From positions 21,347 to 85,346 of the forward strand of contig JACRDK010000004.1 of assembly GCA_016218585.1 (NCBI GenBank): DNA of 64,000 nucleotides. The letters run 5' to 3'. The translations under genes were made by a program, and so were the position numbers. This DNA is from Candidatus Doudnabacteria bacterium (GTDB lineage Bacteria; Patescibacteriota; Doudnabacteria; UBA920). This document shows, one piece after another, positions 1-62,732 of the stretch. Under the pieces are notes generated by a model. That model was not told the origin of the DNA. It worked only from the letters and a program-made list of their open reading frames with translations, and searched no databases. Positions within the stretch are counted from its first letter, which is position 1. Every line of letters starts with the position of its first letter.

Positions 1-254
1 AATTAAAAAACTGGCTTTGCTGAAAAAAGCTTTTTAAGCCAGAAACGTCTATTCCCGGAATTGGCACGTGGGCCAAAATTCTAGTTATGAATAAAAGACC
101 TAGCACAATTAAAATTTTGTTGCGCAGGTCTTTGGTTTTCCAAATAAGAGTGATTTTGTTCATAATAATCTAATGCGAATTACTAATTATTATGCGAATT
201 ATGCGAAAATTTTATTTTCATTTTTCGCATTTTATTTCGTATTATTCGCATTCG

Positions 255-2569: not shown

Positions 2570-2962
2570 TTACCAAACCTGGCACACTACTTCTCCGCCC
2601 ATGCGGGACTTGCGAGCTTCTTTGTCAGTCATCAGACCTTTGGAGGTAGATACCACTGTAATACCATAACCGCTGTTAGTGCGAGGAAGCTTGTCTGCTG
2701 CTAAGTAAATTCTCTGTCCCGGTTTGCTTACTCTCTGAATTCCGCCAATTACCGCTTCGCCGCTTTCCGAGTATTTCAGAGTTATCTTCAACATTTTGTG
2801 CTTATCGGAGAACTCCTCAACGCCGCTAACGAAACCCTCTTTCAATAAAAGCTTTGCCAAGTTATCTTTGAAATTGGAATAGGGCAAAACCAGCTCGTTT
2901 TTGCGGGCTGCGCTTGCATTGCGAATGCGGGTTAACATGTCGGCGATTGGATCTGTGAACAT
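2570..2962 (-). CDS. rpsH: 30S ribosomal protein S8
   Basis: MFTDPIADMLTRIRNA N-terminus; gene order. Confidence 0.9.
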   Translation of the reverse strand: MFTDPIADMLTRIRNASAARKNELVLPYSNFKDNLAKLLLKEGFVSGVEEFSDKHKMLKITLKYSESGEAVIGGIQRVSKPGQRIYLAADKLPRTNSGYGITVVSTSKGLMTDKEARKSRMGGEVVCQVW

Positions 2963-3061
2963 AATTTTACTAAATACTAATTGTTTACTAATATGCTAAT
3001 CTTGATGAATCGTAAGTGAATTGTGTTATTTTGTAAGCAGAAATTCGTGCTTCGTAAAGTT

Positions 3062-3256
3062 CTACCAACTGGCTTTAACTACTCCGGGTATTTCCCCTTT
3101 GCTGGCTAATTCTCTAAAACAGATTCTGCACATATCAAAATCTCTCATATAACCGGCTTTACGGCCGCACTTCCAACAGCGCCTCACTACCCGAGTCTGG
3201 TATTTAGGATTTGTTCTGCTCCTTAAAGATTTTATGATTTGTGCTTGTGTAGCCAT
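3062..3256 (-). CDS. rpsZ: 30S ribosomal protein S14, zinc-ribbon type Z
   Basis: 64 aa with CWKCGR...CRIC Cys4 motif, between S8 and L5. Confidence 0.9.
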
Positions 3257-3318
3257 ACAAAATTAATTTAAGATACTAATCTACTAATTTATGCTAATGA
3301 TACTAACTCGGCTTTAAT

Positions 3319-3858
3319 TTATTTTTTAAACGGGAAGCCTAATAAAGTTAACAATTCTCTGGCTGGTGCGTCTTTGCCTGCGTTAGTAACAACAGAAATT
3401 TCTAAGCCAAAAACATTTTCTAGCGATTCGGAGGAAATTTCCGGGAAAACCAAGTGTTCTTTCATGCCGAGGTGATAATTACCTCTGCCGTCAAAACCAT
3501 CTTTGTTAATCCCCTGGAAATCGCGCACTCTTGGCAAAGCAACGTTTACCAGTTTATCCAAGAAGCTGTACATGCGGTAACCTCTTAAGGTGCAAACAAT
3601 ACCGACAACCTGGTTTTCTCTGACCTTAAATCCGGCAATGGATTTTCTGGCCTTAGTCTTAACCGGAGCCTGTCCGGTAATTTTCTTAACGTCTTCGACA
3701 TATTGGTCAATCTTCTTTTTGTCGTCCTTAACTTTACCAACACCGACGTTAACAATGACTTTAAGAATTTTCGGCACTTGCATAACATTCTTGTAGCCGA
3801 ATTTTTCTTTTAAAACCGGGACTATCTTCTTATTATATTGTTCCTGTAATCTTTCCAT
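3319..3858 (-). CDS. rplE: 50S ribosomal protein L5
   Basis: MERLQEQYNKKIVPVL...VNVGVG typical L5 sequence. Confidence 0.9.
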   Translation of the reverse strand: MERLQEQYNKKIVPVLKEKFGYKNVMQVPKILKVIVNVGVGKVKDDKKKIDQYVEDVKKITGQAPVKTKARKSIAGFKVRENQVVGIVCTLRGYRMYSFLDKLVNVALPRVRDFQGINKDGFDGRGNYHLGMKEHLVFPEISSESLENVFGLEISVVTNAGKDAPARELLTLLGFPFKK

Positions 3859-3968
3859 AAAATCGCTGAATGATGCGGAACTTAACGCGGACTATCGCGG
3901 AAAGAACCACAACTTGTTAATTAAATTTCTGCGTACTTCCGCGTTATCTTCCGCGTGTTTCCGCGTTG
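3859..3968. repeat. Intergenic repeat family R1, copy 2
   Basis: See copy 1. Confidence 0.85.
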
Positions 3969-4292
3969 TTAAACTGCTTTACCGCTGGTTCTGGCCATTC
4001 TCTGCTTGCTGCCATTTTCCAAAAAAGTAAATCCAACGCGGGATGGGTTGCCGGAATTCGGGTCGAGCAGCATAACTTTAGAAACATGGAGGGCTGCAAA
4101 AAATGTAACTTTCTTTCCTGGCTCGCCGGCTTTTTTAGACTTTTCAAACCTGGTATGGACATTAACGTTTTCCACCATCACCTTGGAGATTTTGGGTAAA
4201 ACTTTAATAACCTTGCCGGTCTTTCCTTTGTCTTTTCCGGAAATGACTTTTACGGTATCGCCTGTCTTAATTTTTAGTCTGTTATTATTCAT
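3969..4292 (-). CDS. rplX: 50S ribosomal protein L24
   Basis: KIKTGDTVKVISGKDKGKTGKV is the KOW motif. Confidence 0.9.
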   Translation of the reverse strand: MNNNRLKIKTGDTVKVISGKDKGKTGKVIKVLPKISKVMVENVNVHTRFEKSKKAGEPGKKVTFFAALHVSKVMLLDPNSGNPSRVGFTFLENGSKQRMARTSGKAV

Positions 4293-4418
4293 ATCTTTAC
4301 TAAATACTAATTGATACTAATATACTAATCATTAAATGTTGGGTAATCTTTGAGAGTAAGAATTCGTATATTCGCCTGCCTGCCGGTAGGCAGGTACAAA
4401 TTCGTACTTCGTAAAGTT
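4293..4418. repeat. Intergenic repeat family R2 (ACTAAT and GAATTCGTA words). Copies also lie at 2963-3061, 3257-3318 (partial), 5378-5483, 5901-6020 and 7373-7482
   Basis: CTTTACTAAATACTAATTGATACTAATATACTAAT...AGTAAGAATTCGTATATTCG[P20]TACAAATTCGTACTTCGTAAAGT. Confidence 0.85.
4375..4394. repeat. 20-bp perfect palindrome P20, CCTGCC(T)ACCGGCAGGCAGG; other copies at 7439-7458, 13399-13418 and 24476-24495
   Basis: Exact copies. Two are inserted into R2 copies (R2 at 5378-5483 lacks it), one is inside the partial tRNA-Leu copy, and one is upstream of tuf. Confidence 0.85.
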
Positions 4419-4811
4419 TTAAATTACTTCTGGTGCCAAGCTGACAATTTTCTTAAATCCATCTTCAAAGGAGCCTTTAGCTTTTTCGCGAATTTCTCTC
4501 GGGATAGGACCGAATATGCGGCTTCCTTTTGGCTCACCTTTTTCTTTATCTACAATCACTCCGGCATTTTCATCAAAGCGTATATAAGATCCGTCTTTTC
4601 TGCGAATTTCTTTGCGCAAGCGAACAATTACCGCATAAACTTTATCACCCTTCTTTAAGGAAGAGTTCGGCGCAACCTGCTTGACGGAGCCGGCAACAAT
4701 GTCGCCGATTCTGGCAAAACGATTGCTGTTTTTTCCGTTGACGGAGAAAACATTGACGATCTTTGCGCCAGTATTGTCTGCTATATTAATCCAGGATCTT
4801 ACTTGTAACAT
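4419..4811 (-). CDS. rplN: 50S ribosomal protein L14
   Basis: MLQVRSWINIADNTGAK N-terminus. Confidence 0.9.
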   Translation of the reverse strand: MLQVRSWINIADNTGAKIVNVFSVNGKNSNRFARIGDIVAGSVKQVAPNSSLKKGDKVYAVIVRLRKEIRRKDGSYIRFDENAGVIVDKEKGEPKGSRIFGPIPREIREKAKGSFEDGFKKIVSLAPEVI

Positions 4812-4919
4812 ATAATTCTTTCGCTAGTGCACGGAGGTTGTAGACTCCGCGGATATCATTGACCAAAGCAATTCCTTTTGATCAGCGCTATCCGTGGAAT
4901 CTGCGTATCCGCGAGATAA

Positions 4920-5162
4920 CTAAATTTTATTAATTACTTTAAACTTCTTATCTTTGCTTATTGGTTTAACCGATTCAATCACCACACGGTCTCCGGTTTT
5001 ATACTCATTCGCTTCATCATGAGCTTTAAAACGCTTGGAAATAGTGTAAGATTTTTTATACTTAGCGTGGCGCTTTCTCATATCTACCTTTACCACCACG
5101 GTTTTGTCCATTTTATCGGACACTATAACACCGGTAAGTTGTTGCTTCTTTGATTGTGTCAT
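4920..5162 (-). CDS. rpsQ: 30S ribosomal protein S17
   Basis: LTGVIVSDKMDKTVVVKV; gene order. Confidence 0.85.
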   Translation of the reverse strand: MTQSKKQQLTGVIVSDKMDKTVVVKVDMRKRHAKYKKSYTISKRFKAHDEANEYKTGDRVVIESVKPISKDKKFKVINKI

Positions 5163-5176
5163 ATACTTGATACCTA

Positions 5177-5377
5177 CTACTTAATGCTTTCAACTTTCTT
5201 CTGATTTAGATAAGTCATTATACGGGCAATGTCTTTTTTAACCGCTCCCAATTCCCGGGGGTTCTTTAACTGATTGAGGCGGATTTTAACCGCTAAATCG
5301 TGAGCTTTAGCGCGCAATTCGAGCAACAAGCTTTTAATTTCACCTTCTGATTTAGTTGTTAATTCCTTAAATTTCAT
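5177..5377 (-). CDS. rpmC: 50S ribosomal protein L29
   Basis: 66 aa, MKFKELTTKSEGEI...LRAK; gene order. Confidence 0.8.
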   Translation of the reverse strand: MKFKELTTKSEGEIKSLLLELRAKAHDLAVKIRLNQLKNPRELGAVKKDIARIMTYLNQKKVESIK

Positions 5378-5483
5378 ATCTTTACTAAATACTTATTGAT
5401 ACTAATATACTAATTTTAATCTAAAAGGTAATTTATGGAAGTAAGAATTCGTATATTCGTACAAATTCGTACTTCATAAAGTT

Positions 5484-5900
5484 TTAACCTTGCTTTTCTT
5501 TAACTAAGAATCTGGATTTTACCGGAAGTTTGTAGCTGGCTAATCTCATAGCTTCCTGGGCCTGCTCTCTGGTCACCCCGTCCATTTCAAATAAAATCTT
5601 GCCTTTTTTTACAACTGAAACAAAGTGGTCAACAGCACCTTTACCGCCACCCATAGGGCTTTCGTTTCCGTGGAGGGTAACCGGTTTGTCGGCAAATACG
5701 CGGATCCAAATTTTACCGCCTCTTTGCACATAGCGAGTCATAGCGCGGCGGGCTGCTTCAATCTGACGAGCGGTAACCCAGCTGCTTTCCATGGCTTTTA
5801 AGGCAAAGGTGCCGAAAGCGATTTGTTCGCCGGCGGAAGCCTGTCCTTTAGTATGACCGCGGTGATGTTTGCGGTGTTTTAACTTTTTCGGGATAAACAT
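5484..5900 (-). CDS. rplP: 50S ribosomal protein L16
   Basis: MFIPKKLKHRKHHRG N-terminus. Confidence 0.9.
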   Translation of the reverse strand: MFIPKKLKHRKHHRGHTKGQASAGEQIAFGTFALKAMESSWVTARQIEAARRAMTRYVQRGGKIWIRVFADKPVTLHGNESPMGGGKGAVDHFVSVVKKGKILFEMDGVTREQAQEAMRLASYKLPVKSRFLVKEKQG

Positions 5901-6020
5901 ATCGGTTAAATTTACTATCTTTACTAACTACTAATCGGTACTAATATACTAATCTGTGATTATTAAATTGGTATATTCGTAAAAATTAGTAGTTAGTAAA
6001 GTAAGAGAATTAATTAACAA

Positions 6021-6704
6021 TTAGGCTTTTTTTGGAGCGTCGGCGATATCTTTTACAAAGGTTTTCTTACTTTCAAATACGTCTCCTTTATAAATCCAGA
6101 TTTTTACTCCGACAGTTCCGTAAGTGGTAAAAGCAGTGCTTCTGGCAAAATCTATATTGGCGCGCAAGGTATGAAGAGGAATTTTACCGGAGGAAAGATG
6201 TTCTGTGCGGGCAATATCAGCCCCGTTCAACCTACCGCCAATTGCTACTTTTGCTCCCTTAGCACCGGCGTTCATCATCTGTTCCAAGGACTGCTTCATC
6301 AGTTTTCTAAAAGCAACGCGCTTTTCCAACTGTTCGGCAATGCCGTTAGCAATAACTTGAGCTTGCAGGTTAACTTCTTTAATATCTTCGATGTTAACTT
6401 TTAATTCCTGCTTAATCCCCAACTTCGCTTTAATCTTTTTCTTAAGCTCTTCAATGCCGGCGCCGCCTTTGCCGATTATTAAACCCGGTTTAGTGGTTTT
6501 AATAATGACAGTAATAGTGCCGTCGTTTAAGCGCTCAATGTCGATTCTAACCAAGCCGGCCTTTTTCAAATGCAATTCCAAATATTCGCGAATTTTTACG
6601 TCTTCAGCCAATTGCTTGGAGTAGTTCGCTTTGGAAAACCATCTGGACTTCCAGGTATCGGTTATCTTCAATCTTAGTGATGTTGGGTTTATCTTATGTC
6701 CCAT
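6021..6704 (-). CDS. rpsC: 30S ribosomal protein S3
   Basis: MGHKINPTSLRLKITDTW N-terminus; KH domain. Confidence 0.9.
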   Translation of the reverse strand: MGHKINPTSLRLKITDTWKSRWFSKANYSKQLAEDVKIREYLELHLKKAGLVRIDIERLNDGTITVIIKTTKPGLIIGKGGAGIEELKKKIKAKLGIKQELKVNIEDIKEVNLQAQVIANGIAEQLEKRVAFRKLMKQSLEQMMNAGAKGAKVAIGGRLNGADIARTEHLSSGKIPLHTLRANIDFARSTAFTTYGTVGVKIWIYKGDVFESKKTFVKDIADAPKKA

Positions 6705-6793
6705 AATTTTAGTTAAAAGTTAATCAGGTTAATCAAGTTTATCAAGTCATTTACTTTGCAACTTTATGAACTTGATAACTTTATAAACTCGTT

Positions 6794-7372
6794 TTATACT
6801 CCGGTTTTTCTGTTAAATAATCTGCGTTTGTTGGCAACTTTGTTCATCTTTACTTCTTCATCAGTCTTGAACACCTGGCTCTTTTTCGGTGCGGCATTTA
6901 CCGGCTTCTTGCTTACTGCGTCTTGCTGGTCAACATTTTCAGGTTTAACTTCTTTGCCTTCAGTTTTCTTTAAGAAGCCAAGCTTGGTTTTGCTGGCTTT
7001 GGCCTTCTTCTTTTCTTCCAGCACAACATTAACGTGGCTCATCTTTCTTCTAATTACGAAAGCGCTGCCGCGGGCTCTGGGGAAATAACGCTTCATTTCT
7101 TTGCCCTGGTCGGCGGTAATGCTTTTTATAAACAAAAACTGAGGATCTAAAGAAAAATTATTCTTGGCATTGGCAATGGCGGACTGAAGTAATTTAATAA
7201 CAATCGGGGCAGCCTTTTTGTTGGCATGCTGGAGCTGGACAATCGCGTCCATCGCATTCATGTTCTTGATTAAATTAGTAACCAAGCGCATTTTTCTTGG
7301 GGCAATATGAATATGCCGGGCTGAAGCCTTAACCAATTTTCCGTTATTCTGTTTAGTTGCTTGCTCTGTCAT
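6794..7372 (-). CDS. rplV: 50S ribosomal protein L22 with a Lys-rich C-terminal extension of about 70 aa
   Basis: ASARHIHIAPRKMRLV core. The protein is 192 aa against about 110 aa normally. Confidence 0.85.
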   Translation of the reverse strand: MTEQATKQNNGKLVKASARHIHIAPRKMRLVTNLIKNMNAMDAIVQLQHANKKAAPIVIKLLQSAIANAKNNFSLDPQFLFIKSITADQGKEMKRYFPRARGSAFVIRRKMSHVNVVLEEKKKAKASKTKLGFLKKTEGKEVKPENVDQQDAVSKKPVNAAPKKSQVFKTDEEVKMNKVANKRRLFNRKTGV

Positions 7373-7482
7373 ATTACTATATTTACTAAATACTAATTTT
7401 AAATGGTTTAAATTTTGGAATAAGAATTCGTATATTCGCCTGCCTGCCGGTAGGCAGGTACAAATTCGTACTTCGTAAAGTG

Positions 7483-7815
7483 TTACTTCTTGCTGTCGTC
7501 TTTGGCGGCGTTAAGCTTGGCCTTTTCGGCTTCGGCTTTGGCTAATTCTTGTTCTTTAGCCATCTTACCACCATGACGGAGGAACTTACGAGTCGGAGAA
7601 AATTCTCCAAGCTTGTGGCCTACCATGTTTTCTGTAACGAATACCGGAACGTGAGTACGGCCGTTATGAACCAGGAAAGTAAAGCCTACAAACTCAGGGG
7701 CAATAGTGCAGGATCTGGACCAAGTTTTAATTTGGGTCTGACCGGCCTTGCCGTTTTGCACTTTCTTTACCACTCTCGGGTCTACGTATGGTCCTTTTTT
7801 TAGTGATCTAGACAT
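7483..7815 (-). CDS. rpsS: 30S ribosomal protein S19 with a C-terminal extension
   Basis: [12 protein letters not shown]...TFLVHNGR. Confidence 0.9.
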
Positions 7816-11845: not shown

Positions 11846-13033
11846 CTATTTGATGATTTTAGTAACAACACCAGCGCCTACGGTATGGCCACCTTCGCGA
11901 ATAGCGAATTTGCCTTTTTCTTCCAAAGCGACCGGAGTAATTAATTTCACAACCAACTTTACGGTGTCTCCTGGCATAACCATTTCCTGACCTTCCGGCA
12001 AGGTAACGTCACCAGTAACATCGGTGGTGCGAATATAGAATTGCGGCTTATAACCCTTAAAGAACGGGGTATGGCGTCCGCCTTCTTCTTTGCTCAAAAT
12101 ATATACTTCGGTTTCAAACTCGGTATGAGGAGTAATGGAACCCGGTTTGCACAAAACTTGTCCGCGTTCTACTTCTTCTTTCTTAGTACCGCGGAGCAAA
12201 ATTCCTGCGTTGTCCCCTGCCATACCGCTGTCCAACTGCTTGTTGAACATTTCGATACCGGTAACAACAGTCTTAGTTGTTGGCTTTAAACCAACAATTT
12301 CAATTTCATCGGATAATTTAATTTCACCGCGTTCGATTCTACCGGTAACTACGGTACCGCGTCCTTCAATGGAGAAGATGTCTTCAATCGGCATTAAGAA
12401 CGGTTTGTCGGTTTCGCGCTTCGGATCCGGGATGTAGGTGTCCAAATATTCAACAAGTTTCAAAATGGAACCTTCGCCCATTTCAGAAGTGTCTCCTTCC
12501 AAGGCTTTCAAAGCAGAACCGCGAACAATCGGGGTGTCTTTGCCTGGGAATTCGTATTTGGTCAAAAGGTCGCGAATTTCTTCTTCAACCAATTCCAAAA
12601 GTTCAGCATCCTGAACCATATCGCACTTGTTCATGTAAACAATAATGTAAGGAACACCTACCTGCTTGGCTAACAAAATGTGTTCGCGAGTCTGCGGCAT
12701 AGGACCGTCAGTAGCGGATACAACCAAGATGGCTCCGTCCATTTGAGCAGCACCGGTAATCATGTTCTTGATATAGTCGGCGTGTCCCGGACAGTCAACG
12801 TGGGCGTAGTGGCGCTTAGCGCTTTCATATTCCACGTGAGCAGTGTTAATGGTAATACCACGGGCTTTTTCTTCCGGGGCATTGTCAATGCTGTCGTAGG
12901 CGCGAGCCTTGGCTCCACCAGTTTTAGACAGAACTGTAGTAATAGCAGCAGTAAGGGTGGTTTTGCCGTGGTCAACGTGACCAATGGTACCAACGTTTAC
13001 GTGCGTTTTGCTACGGTCAAATTTGTCTGCCAT
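11846..13033 (-). CDS. tuf: Elongation factor Tu
   Basis: [15 protein letters not shown] and the full-length EF-Tu sequence. Confidence 0.95.
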
Positions 13034-14320: not shown

Positions 14321-14550
14321 AACCTCCTTACCGCAAAACAAGAACAGCTTTGTGCCGGCGGGTCCGTAAGGACTCCGCCGGCATCATCATTTTTATATTT
14401 TATAAATTGTGCAGATTTGGACGATCGTCAGAATATGTACAAAGATAAAAATGTAAAATACTCTGAAAGCTCTAAATTTAAAACAGGCCAATGCAATCGC
14501 ATTGGCCTGTTTTTATCTGTACTATCTGTTCCCATCCGTAATCCGTGATT

Positions 14551-16671
14551 CTACATACCTTTTCTAACATTGATGCCGGCGCGGGATTCAATAATCTTTT
14601 CCGCTACGTTCTTCGGCACTTCAGCGTAATGGTCAAATTCCATAGTATAGCTGGCTTGACCCTGGGTCATAGAACGCAAGGCTGTGGCGTAACCGAACAT
14701 TTCGGACAACGGCACAAAAGCGTCAATAATCTTTAAGTGCAAGCGGTCAGTCATTTCATTAATCTGAGCGCGTTTGCTGTTTAAGTCTCCGATTACGTCA
14801 CCCATGTTTGTTTCCGGAGTGGTAACTTCAACTTTCATAATCGGTTCCAAAATAATTGGGGTAGCTTTTTTAACAGCATCCTGCAAACCCTTGGAAGCGG
14901 CAATTTTGAAAGCCATTTCCGAGGAGTCAACTTCGTGGTAGCTACCATCGAACACAGCAGCTCTAAAGTCTACCAATGGGTAACCGGCAATAACGCCGTT
15001 TGCGGCAGATTCCTGAATACCTTTGTCGATTGGCTTGATATATTCTTTTGGAATAACACCACCAACAACTTCATCCACGAATTCATAACCCTTGCCGCGC
15101 TCAAGCGGTTCAACGCGAATATAACAATGTCCGTATTGTCCGCGTCCACCAGTCTGGCGAATGTATTTGCTTTCCGCTTCGGCAATCTTCTTAATGGTTT
15201 CCTTGTAAGCTACTTCCGGCTTACCAACGTTAGCTTCCACTTTAAACTCGCGCTTCATGCGGTCAACAATAATTTCCAAGTGCAATTCACCCATACCGGC
15301 AATAATTGTCTGCTGGGTTTCTTCGTTAGTGGAAAGTTTGAAGGTCGGATCTTCTTCAGCCAATTTAGACAAAGCAATGCCCATTTTTTCCTGGTCAGCT
15401 TTGGTCTTCGGTTCAATGGACATGGAAATAACCGTGTCGGCAAACTTGATAGTTTCCAAACGAATCGGCTTTTCTACATCGCACAAAGTATCTCCGGTAA
15501 ATGTTTCTTTTGGTCCCACAAGGGCGCAAATATCTCCGGCAAAAACTTCTTTAACTTCATCGCGCTGGTCGGCACGCATACGGACAATACGTCCAACGCG
15601 TTCTTTGTTGCCGGTGCGGGCGTTAAGAACATAAGAACCGGCTTCCAATTTTCCCGCGTACACGCGGAAGAAACACAAGCGTCCAACGAACGGGTCGGTG
15701 GCAATTTTAAAAGCCAAAGCTGTAAATGGTTCTTCGTCGGAAGGCTTTCTTAAAATTTCCGCATCGGTTTTTAAGTCATGGCCTTTTACCACGCCGCGGT
15801 CAACCGGGGAAGGTAAAAAGTTAACAACGGCGTCAAGAATTTTTTGAACAATAATTCCGCGTCCGTCGCCGCCTAAGACCGGGAAGAATTTTCCGCCCTG
15901 AACGGCTTTGCGAATTGCAACCAAGAATTCATTTTCTGTGAGTTCTTGTCCGCCTAAATATTTTTCCATTAAGGCGTCATCGCTTTCAACTACTTTTTCA
16001 AGCAACTTATGGCGATATTCCTTGGCTTTTTCCAGCATATCGGCCGGCACTTCGCCAACGGTAAACTCTTTGTCGGTAAAATCTTTATAGGTGTAGGACT
16101 TCATATTAATAAGGTCAACTACGCCATTGATATCTTTTTCAAAACCAATCGGCAACTGAATTGGGAAAGCATTCGGGGAAAGGCGCTTATGAATAGAATC
16201 CAAAGACTTATAAAAATCTCCGCCAGTTTGGTTGATTTTGTTAATGAAGCACATGCGAGGCACCTGGTATTTATCGGCCTGGCGCCAAACAGTTTCACTT
16301 TGCGGTTCTACACCCATTTTTCCATCAAAGACAACAACCGCGCCGTCGAGAACGCGCAAACTGCGTTCTACTTCCACGGTAAAGTCCACGTGGCCCGGAG
16401 TGTCAATAATGTTAATTTTGTGCTTAACGTCCCCTGCCAATTTAATAAAGCGGGGGGTCCAGTAGCAGGTAACGGCGGCGGAGGTAATGGTAATACCGCG
16501 CTCGCGTTCCTGTTCCATCCAGTCGGTGGTAGTTTCACCTTCGTGCACCGCGCCAATCTTGTGAATCATACCGGTGTTATACAAAACACCTTCGGTGACG
16601 GTGGTTTTACCGGCATCAATGTGGGCAATAATTCCAATATTGCGGGTTACTTCTATAGGATATTCTCTCAT
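14551..16671 (-). CDS. fusA: Elongation factor G
   Basis: [12 protein letters not shown] and the full 706-aa EF-G sequence. Confidence 0.95.
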
Positions 16672-17431: not shown

Positions 17432-17519
17432 ATGTTTATTCCACTAATTCACGAATTCTCACTAATTTCACGAATACCACTTAGTGTGATTCGTGATGAT
17501 TAGTGAATTCGTGGATAAA
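17432..17519. repeat. Repeat family R6 (CACGAAT words) immediately downstream and upstream of rpsL; second copy at 17934-18019, about 90% identical over about 75 bp
   Basis: CACTAATTTCACGAATA.CACTTAGT.T.ATTCG.GATGATTAGTGAATTCGTGGATAAATTATT occurs on both sides of rpsL. Confidence 0.85.
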
Positions 17520-17933
17520 TTATTTTCTCTTCGTTCCGTATTTAGAACGGCTTCTCTTTCTCCCGTCGACTCCGAGAGTATCTAGCTTTCCGCGAACAAT
17601 GTGATAACGGACACCGGGAAGATCTTTTACACGTCCGCCGCGGATCATTACTACGCTGTGTTCCTGTAAGTTGTGGCCAATACCCGGGATGTAAGCAATA
17701 ACTTCCATTCCGTTGGTAAGTTTGACCTTAGCCACTTTACGCAAAGCCGAGTTCGGCTTTTTAGGCGTTGTGGTATAAACCTTTAAACAGACACCGCGCA
17801 TAAACGGGGCGCCGGTTTTTATGAACAATGTCTTGTTCTTTATCAAGTTCTGCCTGCGCATTAACGCCGGAGACTTGCTTTTGGTTTTAAGAGGGCTTCT
17901 GCCTCTGCGAACCAATTGATTGATTGTTGGCAT
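17520..17933 (-). CDS. rpsL: 30S ribosomal protein S12
   Basis: [12 protein letters not shown]...[10 protein letters not shown]. Confidence 0.95.
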
Positions 17934-18310
17934 TTTTTCTCCACCAATTCTCGAATTAACACTAATTTCACGAATACTACTTAGTATAATTCGCGATGAT
18001 TAGTGAATTCGTGGATAAATTATTTTCTTGAATACTTTAAATAGCCATAAAAAAACTGACAAAAGATGTCAGATCTTTCGCGCTCGCCTGCTTGGTACTC
18101 ATCAGAAACCTTTTGATGTTTCTTCCCTCCCCTCCTAAGGGGAGGGTGAAGGGAGAGGTTGTCTTCCCAAAACTTGCGACTAATAAATAGTGATTCAATC
18201 GCCAATACGCTGATATGCACAGATTGCGCGGATTTCTGCATCCGTGTTATCTGTTGCTATTTGCGTATTTGCGACTGGGCTTCTTATTCAATTAAACACA
18301 TTATACAGAA

Positions 18311-18339: not shown

Positions 18340-18374
18340 AAAATGTTTTCAGGCTATTTTTAAGGAGGACGATC

Positions 18375-18701
18375 GTGTCTGTTTTTCATTATCAGGGCAT
18401 GAGAGTTGAAGGCGGTACAGAACCTACAATAACCGAAGCCCCTCTCAAACAATGCCCAGGCGGCGAACACTCGTGGACTATGACCAGCTTTGAATGGGTA
18501 CTGGCTAAGTCGGGTATCTTCCACAGCAACTACTTCTGGACAAAGACGTGCCCTTTATGTAGCCACCTGTTCAAACGGTACAGGCGCAAAGAGCTGTACT
18601 ACTGCCTGGTGTGCCACTCCAAAGGCCACATCACGCCGTCCGTTGTGCACGGGCGCTGTGATGACTGCAACACATTCCAAACAAATTTGGCTGAGAGATA
18701 G
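18375..18701 (+). CDS. Cys-rich small protein (108 aa) with two predicted zinc ribbons; GTG start
   Basis: A perfect AGGAGG sits 7 nt upstream of the GTG. Motifs CPGGEH, CPLC, CLVCH and CDDC. About 52% GC against a background of about 38%. Confidence 0.55.
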   Translation: MSVFHYQGMRVEGGTEPTITEAPLKQCPGGEHSWTMTSFEWVLAKSGIFHSNYFWTKTCPLCSHLFKRYRRKELYYCLVCHSKGHITPSVVHGRCDDCNTFQTNLAER

Positions 18702-19241: not shown

Positions 19242-19437
19242 CACCGTTACCCACCCAAACGCAAAAGGGCGCCCCGTCCAATTCGGACGTGTGGCGCTTT
19301 TTTCTTTACCTCTAAATATTTTACTTGTCTAAGACTTTCCAATTTATAAAAAAATAGACAAGCTTTGTACAATGACTATATAGCTACAAATTCCACTCAT
19401 TCACGGCCGTGAATGAGTGGAATTTGTTAAATTAGGC

Positions 19438-22900: not shown

Positions 22901-23206
22901 CTGCACTTTTCAATCCCCCTTAACTCTTTAATTCTAACCAACAATACATTTCCGATATAATCAGAAAATAATTGCTATCTAGAATCCCATTTTAAAACCC
23001 TAAAGTTTTTAGCTTTAGGGTTAAGGTGTAAGAAATCTTTTGGTAAAAATCTGTAAACGCCTATTCCCTAAATAACCCTGCCAAAACAATGGCCTTAGTA
23101 AAGACCGGGAGGGTATTAATGGAATTGTGGCGAAAATTCATCATATTGCAATTATATTACAACTTTATGCAAAATCCGTCAAATAGATTTTTCCACAATA
23201 AAAAAA

Positions 23207-23242
23207 TTGGTCAAATTTGGACGATCGTCCAAATTTGACCAA
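23207..23242. repeat. 36-bp perfect palindrome TTGGTCAAATTTGGACGATCGTCCAAATTTGACCAA downstream of parB
   Basis: Exact dyad. The 15-mer ATTTGGACGATCGTC recurs at 14415-14429, and GGACGATCGTG overlaps the ribosome-binding site at 18365. Confidence 0.8.
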
Positions 23243-23257
23243 AATATAATCTTAAAT

Positions 23258-24229
23258 TTAAACAGTTAAATACGGCAAGCCGGAAGCTGACTGTTCCGTG
23301 GCCATTTTGTGAACCAAGTCAGAAAGCTCCTCATCGCTAAAGAACTCAATAGTAATTTTTCCGCCCTGGCCTTGGCGCTGAATTTTCACCTGGGTACCAA
23401 GCTTGCCACGGAGTTCTGTTTCCAGTGCCATTAACTTTGGATCCGGAGCGGCTGAGTCCATTTGCCTCTTGGTGGTAAGCTCGCGAACCTTAGCTTCCAC
23501 TTGGCGGACATTTAAATTCTGTTCCTGCACCATTTTATACATTAACAGCATTTTTTCGGGGTCGAGCAGGCCTAAAATTGCGCGGGCGTGCCCTTCCATA
23601 ATTTTACCTTCAATAACGCCACGCTGAATTTCCGCCGGCAAGTTTAACAAACGCACGGTATTGGCAACTGCCGGACGGCTCTTACCGACCTTCTTAGCTA
23701 CCTGTTCCTGCGTCATATTAAAAGTCTTCATTAGCCTCTCATAGGCTTGAGCTTCTTCAATCGGATTCAATTCCTGGCGCTGAATATTTTCAATAAGAGC
23801 AACTTCCAATTTCGTCTGGTCAACCATTGCGTCTTTAATAATAGCAGGCACCAATTGCATACCGGCTAATTGGGAAGCGCGAAAACGCCTTTCCCCTACC
23901 ACTAATTCATACCCAATTGGGGTTTTAGTAACAACTAACGGCTGAATGACGCCATGTTCTTTTATGGAATCGGCTAATTCTTTTAATGCAGCGGGGTCAA
24001 AAGTTTTTCTTGGCTGAAAAGGGTTTGGGGCAATTTTTGCCACTTCAATTTCCTGAATCTGAGCGTCTGCATAAGACACCCTGCCCTGCTCCGGCGTAAC
24101 CTGAGGCATTGGCACCGGCGGATTTACTATCGCATTTTCGGCAACAGCCACAGGGCTGGCAGAAGTTGGCAGCACTGACCCGTCTAAAGACTGAATTGTG
24201 ATTTTTGGTTGAGAGTTTATTTCGTCCAT
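23258..24229 (-). CDS. parB: Chromosome partitioning protein ParB/Spo0J with an N-terminal extension
   Basis: GVIQPLVV...GERRFRA...HTH region. Confidence 0.85.
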   Translation of the reverse strand: MDEINSQPKITIQSLDGSVLPTSASPVAVAENAIVNPPVPMPQVTPEQGRVSYADAQIQEIEVAKIAPNPFQPRKTFDPAALKELADSIKEHGVIQPLVVTKTPIGYELVVGERRFRASQLAGMQLVPAIIKDAMVDQTKLEVALIENIQRQELNPIEEAQAYERLMKTFNMTQEQVAKKVGKSRPAVANTVRLLNLPAEIQRGVIEGKIMEGHARAILGLLDPEKMLLMYKMVQEQNLNVRQVEAKVRELTTKRQMDSAAPDPKLMALETELRGKLGTQVKIQRQGQGGKITIEFFSDEELSDLVHKMATEQSASGLPYLTV

Positions 24230-24453
24230 AAGTGTATTATTTACTTAAAAAGTCTATCAAATTTATGGCCCTAACGCAAACCTCCTATAACAATTCACTT
24301 TTCTGATGTTTGCCGTAGTCTGCCGATTTATCGGCCATGCAACACGGTTATAGCCTGATAAATCAGGCAACTACGACTACGACACCTTTAGGATACACCC
24401 TTGAGCCTTTACGGGTAATTTCTTTTCTGCTAAAATAAATTAGTTTTCAATTC

Positions 24454-24520: not shown

Positions 24521-24808
24521 ATGTACACAGTTTATGCTATAAGTAGCTTAACTAAGAATTACATATACGTAGGTCTAACAGATAATATTCTCAGGAGATT
24601 TACTCAGCATAATCAAGGCTGGGTAAAAACAACAAGAAGCTATAAACCTTTTAAGCTCTTATATACGGAAAACGTTCCTAACCGTATATCTGCTAGAGCA
24701 AGAGAGAAATACTTAAAGAGCGGCATAGGAAAAGAATTTTTAAAAAGTTTATTGATAAGGCCGAGTGGTGGAATGGCAGACACAAACGACTCAAAATCGT
24801 TCGCTTAA
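24521..24808 (+). CDS. GIY-YIG domain (URI-type) endonuclease, about 80-95 aa; the 3' end runs into the tRNA-Leu gene
   Basis: YTVYAISS...YIYVGLT...RRFTQHNQG...KLLYTE...REKYLKS motifs; TATAAT sits 4 nt before the ATG. Confidence 0.7.
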   Translation: MYTVYAISSLTKNYIYVGLTDNILRRFTQHNQGWVKTTRSYKPFKLLYTENVPNRISARAREKYLKSGIGKEFLKSLLIRPSGGMADTNDSKSFA

Positions 24809-24842
24809 CGGCATGAGGGTTCGACTCCCTCCTCGGCCACCA
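24759..24842 (+). tRNA. tRNA-Leu (anticodon CAA), type II with a long variable arm
   Basis: Acceptor GGCCGAG/CTCGGCC, anticodon loop CTCAAAA, T-arm GAGGGTTCGACTCCCTC, CCA. Confidence 0.8.
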
Positions 24843-32861: not shown

Positions 32862-32897
32862 AGGTTTATTATTAATCGTAGTCTGCCGATTTATCGG

Positions 32898-33311
32898 CTA
32901 TTCGTAAAACTTTTTAAATTCCACAATTTCCTGAGTTGGATTTTTTAAAATGTATTCCCTAATCTTATTCAAAGCATTTTCGTTTCTAATAATATGCTCA
33001 TAATAATTTGGCTGCCAGATAAACTCTTCCAGCGCATGCGATACTTTTGCCTTAAACCTCCTAACAATCTCACCTAATTTTAACGTTGACGATTTTAGGA
33101 CAAAGATAATATGGACATGGTTCGGCATAATAACATAGAGATCTAGTTCTAACCCTTCGGTCTTACTCACCAAATCTCTTAGTTCACGTTCAACTTCTTT
33201 TTCTTTATCTTTAAAATAATTTAATCTTAAATCGGTAACTATGGTCACAAAATAATAACCGTTTGACCCATAATCATATTGCTTAAGTCTAATGTGTTTT
33301 AAATTCCTCAT
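32898..33311 (-). mobile_element. tnpA: IS200/IS605-family Y1 (HUH) transposase TnpA or RAYT-like, with flanking hairpins
   Basis: YYFVTIVT...PNHVHIIF motif. A hairpin CGTAGTCTGCCGATTTATCGGC lies at 32877-32898, and GCCGATGAATCGGC at 33325-33340. Confidence 0.75.
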
Positions 33312-33351
33312 ACCATGAAGAAGCTTAAGTCAAAGCCGATGAATCGGCGAA

Positions 33352-60273: not shown

Positions 60274-61329
60274 ATGGCCGAAATTAAAACAAAACTAGAC
60301 TCCCCTCTTTACCGTTATATAACGGAGTTTTTGGAATTCTGTGAAATTGGTAAAAACCAGAGCCGCAACACTATTGCCGCTTATTACCGCTACCTAAATA
60401 AATTTTTAAACTTTGCCATTCCTTTGGGAGTAAAAGATCCAAAAGATATTGATTTGGAAATCATTAAAAAGTACCGCCTCTATTTAAACAGGCTGCAGGA
60501 TGATAAAGGCAACACTCTAAAACTGGTTACCCAAAACTATCATTTAATAGCTTTGCGGGCTTTCTTGAAATACTTGGCGAAGCAGGACGTAAAAACCCTT
60601 TCTCCGGAAAAAATTGAACTTCCAAAAAACCCTCAAAGACAAGTTGAGTTCCTGGAAAAAGAGGAATTGGAAAGGCTGTTTCAGGCTGTGGCCAATGAAA
60701 AAGATGAATTACAGCGACTGCGCGACTCAGCTATTTTACATACTCTCTTTTCCACCGGACTGCGGGTATCCGAACTTGCTTCCCTAAAAATAGAAAGCAT
60801 TAACTTAGACCGAAGGGAATTTACCGTACGCGGCAAAGGCAGTAAACTTCGCCTGGTATTTTTGTCGGACGAAGCGGCGGAAACAATAAAGAAATATTTG
60901 GCTAAACGAAAAGATAACAGCAAGGCGCTGTTTGTCGGACACTCGGAAATAGGCCAATCATCCCCTGCCGCCAAAACCCCAGGCAAAGGTGAAAAGCTTA
61001 CAGCGGAACAAAAAAAAGTAGAAAAAGAAATTGCCAGCCAGGGCTTTAGCAAAAATGGGGACAAAAATACCAATAGAGCCAGCGGTTTAACAGTCAGGCA
61101 AATCCAAAGAATAATAAAAAAATATTGCCGCGTGGCGGGAATAATAAAAAAAGTTACTCCACACACTCTTCGCCATAGCTTTGCCACAGACCTGCTGCAA
61201 AACGGGGCAGATATCCGCTCAGTGCAAACCCTGCTCGGGCACGCCTCAATAACCACTACCCAAATTTACACGCACATTACCAACCAAGGCCTGCGTGATA
61301 TTCATAAAAAATTCCACGATAAAAAATAA
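60274..61329 (+). CDS. xerC: Tyrosine site-specific recombinase (XerC/XerD family) with an internal insertion of about 50 aa
   Basis: R..HxxR...Y catalytic box: TPHTLRHSFATDLLQNGADIRSVQTLLGHASITTTQIYTH. Confidence 0.8.
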   Translation: MAEIKTKLDSPLYRYITEFLEFCEIGKNQSRNTIAAYYRYLNKFLNFAIPLGVKDPKDIDLEIIKKYRLYLNRLQDDKGNTLKLVTQNYHLIALRAFLKYLAKQDVKTLSPEKIELPKNPQRQVEFLEKEELERLFQAVANEKDELQRLRDSAILHTLFSTGLRVSELASLKIESINLDRREFTVRGKGSKLRLVFLSDEAAETIKKYLAKRKDNSKALFVGHSEIGQSSPAAKTPGKGEKLTAEQKKVEKEIASQGFSKNGDKNTNRASGLTVRQIQRIIKKYCRVAGIIKKVTPHTLRHSFATDLLQNGADIRSVQTLLGHASITTTQIYTHITNQGLRDIHKKFHDKK

Positions 61330-62475: not shown

Positions 62476-62552
62476 GGTCGCGTAGCTCAGTTGGATAGAG
62501 CGTCAGCTTGCGGAGCTGAAGGTCGCAGGTTCGACTCCTGCCGCGATCACCA
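62476..62552 (+). tRNA. tRNA-Arg (anticodon GCG as read; an unusual isoacceptor)
   Basis: Acceptor GGTCGCG/CGCGATC, D-arm GCTCAGTTGGATAGAGC, anticodon loop TTGCGGA, T-arm GCAGGTTCGACTCCTGC, CCA. Confidence 0.65.
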
Positions 62553-62657: not shown

Positions 62658-62732
62658 GGTCTCGTAGCTCAATGGATAGAGCCGCAGCCTTCTAAGCTGC
62701 TGATGCAGGTCCGATTCCTGCCGAGGCCACCA
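62658..62732 (+). tRNA. tRNA-Arg (anticodon TCT)
   Basis: Acceptor GGTCTCG/CGAGGCC, anticodon loop CTTCTAA, CCA encoded. Confidence 0.7.

Follow-up and report, generated by a model that had tools for sequence, protein, structure and literature searches.

The PaaX regulator of Escherichia coli represses its own promoter and binds the operator TGATTC-N27-GAATCA, which spans about 39 bp (PMC9493321). Here we describe an element that appears to belong to a related protein-site pair in a stretch of 64,000 nucleotides from Candidatus Doudnabacteria bacterium (assembly GCA_016218585.1, contig JACRDK010000004.1, positions 21,347 to 85,346; the window), namely a 36-bp perfect palindrome next to the parB gene, denoted S1. 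Judged by its sequence, S1 is a solo member of a family of palindromes centered on CGATCG, and this family is genetically linked to a gene of the PaaX family. The reading we favor, with a probability of roughly 0.5, is that S1 and a decayed copy of it, S2, would be solo sites of a PaaX-family protein, and that S1 would not be a ParB site and probably also terminates parB. The original prediction, made from the window alone, had described S1 as an exact 36-bp palindrome near parB; this description holds in full, the 36-mer being completely self-complementary and present only once in the window.

The palindrome family consists of an invariant core, ATTTGGACGATCGTCCAAAT, and outer arms that covary. 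Species-representative genomes, a collection that does not include the source genome, were scanned with the pattern CANATTTGGACGATCGTC, which yielded 30 matches: 26 look like chance, and in three the complementary half is present as well, although the pattern leaves it free. These three come from metagenome-assembled genomes (MAGs) of Saccharibacteria (L035), Harrisonbacteria (L027) and Terrimicrobiaceae, in Verrucomicrobiota (L034); they share the same 26-bp core and have outer arms that are different yet self-complementary. The L035 element, AATCTAGCAAATTTGGACGATCGTCCAAATTTGCTAGATT, is a 40-bp perfect palindrome located 5' of a PaaX-like gene, and its central 26 bp are the same as those of S1. 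A scan of metagenomes with the pattern ATTTGGACGATCGTCNAAAT identified 107 sites on 96 stretches, nearly all of them palindromes of 26-42 bp with arms of 13-21 nt; again, the core is invariant and the outer arms are lineage-specific yet complementary, on contigs that range from 33 to 72% G+C. Among 22 diverse members, 89% of the cells pair, compared to 57% in shuffles, 16 of the 17 pairs are changed on both sides, and covariation scores 0.78, with 0.20 for shuffles and 0.11-0.15 for slid controls. Few of the pairs are G-U, and a strand-bias test of G-U against A-C, aimed at an RNA-level hairpin, had few informative cases to draw on. Within a single locus, in L035 and in L140, 3-4 mid-stem positions distinguish the two copies, and all of these changes are compensated. 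Patescibacteria and Verrucomicrobiota thus have in common a near-identical DNA core of 20-26 bp; to our knowledge, such conservation across phyla is rare for bacterial DNA sites other than parS or CIRCE-type operators.

Of the 89 unique metagenome sites, 49 were classifiable: 20 have divergent genes on their two sides, 14 convergent genes and 15 tandem genes; the neighbors are assorted housekeeping genes, and no enrichment of transposases or recombinases was detected among 77 neighboring proteins. In G+C-rich contigs of the Verrucomicrobia type, for which the gene calls are crude, copies commonly form doublets, 109-113 bp from centre to centre (L044, L045, L053, L073, L105, L113, L114, L123, L124 and L131); such doublets are present in convergent intergenic regions as well as in divergent ones, and their AT-rich spacer, of about 75 bp, lacks conservation. 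Tandem units occur occasionally, and in L088 one such unit, of 383 bp, comprises three copies. There is no CRISPR array in the window, and the copies of the palindrome are either solo or separated by 109-113 bp or 180-380 bp. Rfam scans with gathering and E-value thresholds produced generic hairpin matches only, far below the gathering scores. Plasmids gave no match, phages gave chance partial matches in coding genes, and viral contigs gave one non-palindromic match; the searchable literature contained nothing relevant on the string GGACGATCGTCC and nothing that joins PaaX and Cas2. Two other origins of the family were considered and rejected. A mobile core inserted into pre-existing terminator loops is at odds with the sharing of the outer arms, too, by copies from the same genome (S1 and S2; L035, L140 and Hainich). 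An artefact of a library linker is contradicted by arms that vary by lineage, by copies that lie in a conserved gene order and by the existence of a decayed copy.

The open reading frame (ORF) directly 3' of the L035 palindrome encodes a 158-aa protein that matches the Pfam family PaaX_M (PF20803, Cas2-like) and also scores above the cut-off for CRISPR_Cas2. Searches with tblastn and with a hidden Markov model (HMM) of the family detected homologues beside the palindrome in L035, L045, L105, L123, L109 and L076, and weakly in L067; the L123 protein, of 255 aa, includes PaaX_C. In the reverse test, where loci were fetched via protein homologues alone (L138, L140, L141, L142, L143 and L144), all six carry a related hairpin both just before the start and just past the stop of the gene. 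A distant Doudnabacteria paralogue in L005 is likewise flanked on both sides, by a palindrome with a sequence of its own. Altogether, hairpins are present in 12 of 12 PaaX-like loci: in nine of these, the upstream palindrome ends 6-35 nt before the start codon, and in the other three, it is imperfect or further away; the downstream palindrome, which is usually present, starts at -7 to +69 nt relative to the stop codon. Neither the L138 locus nor the L140 locus has any CGATCG site besides the two that flank the gene. The stems differ among lineages, and the centers are alike (CGATCG, CGATAG/CTATCG and CGACCG).

This protein family is very large in Patescibacteria, with more than 1200 clusters of proteins of approximately 160-190 aa that are annotated as hypothetical, Cas2 or PaaX; the Verrucomicrobiota forms, of approximately 250 aa, have a PaaX_C domain and are named PaaX-family regulators. 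The NCBIfam matches are to cas2 and PaaX, and a profile match to E. coli PaaX (PDB 8A39, E = 6.6e-6) spans the region from a winged helix-turn-helix (wHTH) domain to the C-terminal region. The AlphaFold model (pLDDT 82.6) predicts a winged helix followed by a beta-alpha-beta-beta-alpha-beta domain; in the fold comparison, PaaX (8A39) and type II-A Cas2 (5ZYF) rank best. The invariant motif FD(I/L)PE...R..LR..L...GF..LQ.SVW includes an Asp that aligns with the beta1 Asp of Cas2 and is missing in E. coli PaaX. The residues of the recognition helix differ between L035 and L142, whose proteins are 73% identical and whose palindromes have different arms, and are nearly the same in L109 and L140, whose arms are the same.

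We propose that the small PaaX-family protein, with its wHTH and Cas2-like domains, has the long CGATCG-centered palindrome as its cognate DNA site. At its own gene, one palindrome just before the start codon would cover the likely promoter and a second one would lie past the stop; a dimer of the protein would bind the dyad and repress the gene, as E. coli PaaX does at its operator of about 39 bp, and additional copies elsewhere in the genome would be further binding sites or relics. S1 and S2 would then be solo binding sites, the source genome would encode the cognate protein, and the gene for that protein would lie outside the window. In the parB transcript, S1 would fold into a 16-bp hairpin that most likely ends the transcription of parB, and it would insulate a conserved promoter located just 3' of it (a TGTGGAAAA box, then TTGACG-17-TAATAT, 23182-23154). 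The suggestion in the original prediction that S1 is a protein-binding operator gains from the linkage, at the level of the family, to a PaaX-type winged-helix gene; the binding itself we infer from that linkage.

Several observations weigh against this assignment. A PaaX-like gene was found neither with tblastn nor with the family HMM in the 64-kb window. Convergent genes border S2 and many copies of the Verrucomicrobia type, and at such a place there is nothing for an operator to control. Copies in the same genome are near-identical over 36 bp, sometimes numerous and arranged in doublets of 109-113 bp, which recalls a dispersed repeat more than a regulon. Quite different palindromes go with proteins that are 73% identical. 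The presence of a T-rich tail in only 34 of the 89 family members (62% are without it) implies that termination is not a general role of the family. The span of 36-40 bp is near that of the E. coli PaaX operator, but the sequence is different and palindromic throughout; because the whole 36 bp is palindromic, and not the distal half-sites alone, a hairpin or cruciform constraint would be involved as well. Finally, a gene flanked on both sides fits a simple regulon poorly. Together with the convergent settings, the near-identity over 36 bp, the high copy number with 110-bp doublets and the full-length palindromy, this keeps alive both a plain hairpin or terminator repeat and a module resembling repetitive extragenic palindromes and their REP-associated tyrosine transposases (REP/RAYT).

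Within the window (Table 1), S1 begins 16 nt past the stop of parB, on the parB strand, and combines a stem-loop with a U-tract in the sense orientation past the end of a gene, the two anatomical marks of an intrinsic terminator; the U-tract, which gives S1 this classical shape, was overlooked in the original prediction. The parB-strand RNA of S1 has a 16-bp stem, a GAUC loop and the tail UUUUUUUAUU, with a folding energy of -25.5 kcal/mol (z = -5.4). S1 thus probably doubles as the terminator of parB, a role that is anatomically well supported given that, in the Doudnabacteria loci, the ends of genes abound in long perfect palindromes, many of them flanked by A/T runs, and that other gene ends in the genome of the window have perfect palindromes with A/T runs as well; that S1 would actually end transcription is what this anatomy suggests. 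The distal arm of the L035 palindrome includes a near-consensus -35 element, TTGCTA, 16 nt 5' of TATAAT, and the geometry of the promoter-like element that starts in S1 seems to match it.

Table 1. Coordinates of the palindromes and adjoining features in the window
Feature	Position	Strand	Description
S1	23207-23242	no strand	36-bp perfect palindrome, TTGGTCAAATTTGGACGATCGTCCAAATTTGACCAA = TTGGTCAAATTTGGAC-GATC-GTCCAAATTTGACCAA
S2	14407-14442	no strand	degenerate 36-bp copy of S1, TTGTGCAGATTTGGACGATCGTCAGAATATGTACAA; 28/36 positions shared
S3	18367-18377	+	GGACGATCGTG; overlaps the ribosome-binding site and GTG start of the ORF 18375-18701
parB	23258-24229	-	323 aa; Pfam ParB_N, HTH_ParB, ParB_C; 100% identical to an NCBI Candidatus Doudnabacteria protein
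U-tract	23197-23206	-	TTTTTTTATT, directly after the S1 hairpin; terminator scan: stem 23242-23207, 16 pairs, loop 4
Promoter-like element	23187-23214	-	-35 TTGACC in the distal arm of S1, 16-nt spacer, TGGAAAAAT (promoter scan)

The recurrence of the 15-mer ATTTGGACGATCGTC at 14415-14429 had been noticed already in the original prediction, and the likeness in fact reaches well beyond it, over the whole length of S2. With eight mismatches to S1, S2 is closer than the best chance match in any of 300 first-order Markov simulations of the window (11-16 mismatches). It lacks a U-tract and is located between the terminator hairpins of two convergent genes, namely fusA and a small ORF on the plus strand. 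On the minus strand, the gene order is glyA-bacA-PAP2-parB-[S1]-small conserved unit-...-DUF3048-M50-...-rpsL-rpsG-fusA-[S2]-tuf-S10/spc ribosomal operons, as derived from Pfam scans and synteny with relatives. Accordingly, the proposed "islets" are core genes, and the description of the sites as lying at islet boundaries is not supported: S2 belongs to the conserved str/S10 ribosomal cluster, where it falls in the interval from tuf (11846-13033) to fusA (14551-16671). The third proposed site, S3, does overlap the ribosome-binding site and start codon of a gene as claimed, 4 nt away from the position originally given for it (18363-18373). It shares an apex of 10-11 nt with S1 and, as judged by reading the sequence, has no dyad symmetry outside the 10-mer, so its membership in the family is doubtful and it may be a chance occurrence (rough p 0.004-0.02). 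The excess of core sites over expectation stands as a count, with three matches to GACGATCGTC at up to one mismatch (14420, 18368 and 23220) against 0.38 expected and only two of 100 shuffles reaching three, with the reservation that the third of these is perhaps fortuitous. The window was also called AT-rich, and its measured composition is 40% G+C.

A small unit 3' of parB is kept in all relatives (22985-23195 on the minus strand of the window; also in L001, L005 and L007). It comprises the TGTGGAAAA box and the TTGACG-17-TAATAT promoter, then either an ORF of approximately 27-33 codons (MNS.H.NS.IT..V..K..VW..) or a non-coding RNA with an internal CGGTC...GGCC hairpin, and the terminator CCCTAAAGCTAAAAACTTTAGGGTTTT; it has no match in Rfam. 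In L001 (10970-11190), a 46-codon ORF is inserted right past parB, bracketed by an inverted repeat of about 35 nt that is rich in GGGTT/AACCC. On the other side of parB, the segment 24521-24839 between PAP2 and parB is absent from relatives; it holds a 95-aa GIY-YIG ORF (24521-24808, plus strand) that overlaps a tRNA gene (24759-24839).

The position of S1 invites its interpretation as a non-canonical parS or a Noc-type site bound by the neighboring ParB, which we consider extremely improbable. S1 does adjoin parB, and a canonical parS was detected, at up to two mismatches, neither in the window, in agreement with the original remark that the palindrome is unlike parS, nor within 10 kb of parB in the loci of ten relatives; furthermore, the core starts with ATTT and ends with AAAT, as does, we presume, the Noc site. 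However, the palindrome is missing at the same position in the ten loci of the ParB relatives, which have 80-86% identity and the same gene order: 3' of parB, a different palindrome, of 24 bp, is present in L007-L010, small inserted genes are present in L001 and L003, and L005 is without a palindrome. In other phyla, members of the family lie beside glyS, mutY, HIT and other genes. With the palindrome absent next to parB in relatives and present next to unrelated genes elsewhere, the connection to ParB implied in the original prediction is wrong. Moreover, the helix-turn-helix (HTH) of the window ParB, when aligned to Bacillus subtilis Spo0J (6SDK, E = 5e-59), has the ParB-type residues KSR, ANT and eGHAR at positions that we take to be specificity-determining, so that canonical parS specificity is predicted for this protein, and the half-sites of S1 match parS at 4 of 8 positions, with 4 extra bp between the halves. 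The identity of S1 as parS was therefore rejected, for the lack of a canonical match, for the lack of conservation alongside parB and for the canonical residues of ParB. From these comparisons, S1 is almost certainly not a ParB site, and parB would be without a functional tie to the palindrome. The window ParB itself has Noc as its best NCBIfam match (244 bits against a cut-off of 315), although its HTH residues are ParB-like; of the ORFs scanned in the window, none proved to be a ParA, and parB stands alone. A target of restriction-modification or methylation (CGATCG or GATC), or the core of a tyrosine recombinase site (11 + 6 + 11 around CGATCG), we deem very improbable; a restriction-modification-type target and a recombination site had both been put forward originally. 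CGATCG occurs three times in the window against 6.6 expected, with all three copies embedded in GGACGATCGT, and a tyrosine recombinase gene is present at 60274-61329. Yet this shortfall is not significant, the scanned ORFs of the window yielded neither a methyltransferase nor an endonuclease, sister palindromes in other lineages are centered on CGATAG or CGACCG, and conservation spans 36 bp; for recombination, the copies are multiple and dispersed, with no recombinase enrichment beside them.

The two explanations that remain alive place S1 in a dispersed repeat. In the simpler one, which we regard as rather unlikely, S1 is merely a hairpin of such a repeat, a terminator or RNA-stability element with no dedicated protein, and the PaaX-like gene is a small transcription unit insulated by two of the usual terminators of the genome. 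The 16-bp stem and U-tract of S1, 16 nt past the parB stop, fit this explanation well, as do the different perfect palindrome at the same place in L007-L010, the abundance of perfect palindromes at gene ends in Doudnabacteria loci, many with A/T runs, and the two flanking hairpins of L142, both of which are shaped as canonical bidirectional terminators. What it leaves unaccounted for is the identity of the 20-26-nt apex across phyla, on contigs of 33-72% G+C: a structure-only element would not keep the apex. Nor are the 62% of the members that lack a T-rich tail, the 20 of the 49 classifiable sites that lie between divergent genes, or the rarity of G-U pairs, unlike in RNA stems, expected of terminators, and in all 12 PaaX-like loci the hairpins are present, often as the sole copies within 15-20 kb. 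The other explanation is a selfish module of the REP/RAYT kind, in which the Cas2-like protein would nick or mobilize the hairpins that flank its gene, with S1 and S2 as products of that activity or of recombination between copies; this appears distinctly unlikely. It is favored by the bracketing of the gene by two copies, inverted where the loop is asymmetric (L144 and L005), by the Asp motif of Cas2 beta1, FD(I/L)PE, which is invariant in the family and absent from E. coli PaaX, by contigs of the Verrucomicrobia type, where near-identical copies run to dozens and tandem units and doublets occur, and by the symmetry kept through compensated changes within single loci (L035 and L140). It is disfavored by the limitation of most Patescibacteria loci to the two flanking copies, by the housekeeping genes that neighbor the copies at conserved positions, by the direct orientation of the two copies in L142 and by the lack of visible target-site duplications; moreover, we know of no Cas2-like transposase, and the RAYT encoded in the window uses another REP, GTAG-N3-GCCGA-N4-TCGGC. 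A broader version, which we offer as a speculation that is more probably wrong than right by a wide measure, is that the palindromes and the wHTH/Cas2-like protein would constitute an undescribed repeat-plus-enzyme module of Patescibacteria and Verrucomicrobiota, analogous to REP/RAYT, with solo copies exapted as terminators or operators; in such a module, a Cas2-fold protein with a catalytic Asp would bind, and perhaps cut or mobilize, its own flanking hairpins.

The window holds, as judged from its annotation, a REP/RAYT system in a Patescibacteria genome. The RAYT gene (32898-33311, minus strand), between tatD and leuS, matches Pfam Y1_Tnp and scores 77 bits against the cut-off of 80 for NCBIfam REP_Tyr_transpos; it is flanked by inverted REPs of the type given above (32885-33348), and a REPIN-like doublet of this REP is located upstream of parB (24307-24375). 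S1 was considered as a REP of this RAYT and rejected because the REP of that system is different. The tyrosine recombinase at 60274-61329 consists of Phage_integrase and SAM-like N-terminal domains and is encoded near two tRNA genes (62476-62549 and 62658-62729).

Other palindromes and repeats in the window and in related loci form families of their own. A 42-bp perfect palindrome, ACAAATTCCACTCATTCACGGCCGTGAATGAGTGGAATTTGT, at 19386-19427, after the M50 peptidase gene, has the apex TTCACGGCCGTGAA in common with a 36-bp palindrome in the relative L007 (941-976), the arms of the two being different; palindromes with this apex are, on the face of these two sequences, a second conserved-apex family, centered on CGGCCG. 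In L144, identical palindromes, ATGTTGGACATCCGATGTCCAACAT, at 1077-1101 and 2154-2178 bracket an unrelated gene for a 314-aa protein without a Pfam match, so that bracketing by twin hairpins may be common in these genomes. A G+C-rich palindrome, CCTGCC(T/G)(A/C)CCGG(C/T)AGGCAGG, has four intergenic copies (4375, 7439, 13399 and 24476), one of them upstream of parB. A 97-nt direct repeat with 89% identity (17432-17528 and 17932-18028) lies upstream of rpsG and rpsL and has internal CACGAATTC/GAATTCGTG inverted repeats; a 111-nt repeat at 1694-1804 and 3857-3967 is 95% identical; and the spacers of the S10/spc ribosomal-protein operons (2960-7485) contain several short repeat families, such as TACAAATTCGTACTTCGTAAAGT (five copies) and CATATCTTTACTAAATACTAATTG (four copies).

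If S1 and its relatives are indeed the sites of PaaX-family proteins, the wHTH/Cas2-like proteins of candidate-phyla-radiation genomes would gain a testable partner, a long palindrome centered on CGATCG, CGATAG or CGACCG, and there would be an explanation for some of the perfect palindromes that stand out at the ends of genes in these small genomes. For annotation, the case of S1 is a warning that a palindrome beside parB need not be a centromere. Should the repeat-plus-enzyme version prove true, the palindromes and their protein would represent a free-living relative of the partnership between Cas2 and palindromic repeats, outside CRISPR.

Among the known systems, HIP1 of cyanobacteria (GCGATCGC) resembles the present family as an iterated palindrome with a CGATCG center; however, HIP1 is an 8-10-mer with thousands of copies, also inside genes, whereas the present element is 36-40 bp long, intergenic, represented by few copies in Patescibacteria and linked to a protein gene. 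With the parS/ParB centromere and the Noc site, S1 has in common that it is palindromic DNA adjoining a parB gene, but its sequence bears no relation to the 16-bp parS (TGTTNCACGTGAAACA), it does not persist beside parB in relatives, and the family is mostly found far from any parB. S1 resembles a Rho-independent terminator in having a stable stem-loop followed by a U-tract on the sense strand, 16 nt past a stop; it differs in its long AT-rich stem (6 of 16 pairs are G-C), in the conservation of its sequence across phyla and in that most members of the family are without a U-tract. The likeness to REP/RAYT, which we draw by analogy, consists of a gene bracketed by a hairpin repeat, with solo or doublet copies in intergenic regions, some of which would act as terminators; S1, in contrast, is without a GTAG head, its palindrome is perfect and not imperfect, and the protein is of the wHTH and Cas2-like type, not HUH Y1. 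Regulators of the Lrp/AsnC family similarly have an HTH followed by a beta-alpha-beta-beta-alpha-beta domain, with AhbA/B among the fold matches, and multiple spaced sites, comparable to the 110-bp doublets, without a demonstrated sequence relationship. E. coli PaaX shares with the present system the protein superfamily (PaaX_M with or without PaaX_C, with 8A39 matched in sequence and best matched in fold), the winged-helix N-terminus, the site at the regulator's own promoter, Px in E. coli, and a long dyad of approximately 36-40 bp. Its operator has two distal hexamers, whereas the present site is a full perfect palindrome centered on CGATCG; here, furthermore, there is a second copy past the stop, there are dispersed solo copies, and no paa catabolic genes are nearby. 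The short Patescibacteria proteins are without the CoA-sensing C-terminal domain of E. coli PaaX and keep the Cas2-type FD(I/L)PE motif that PaaX has lost.

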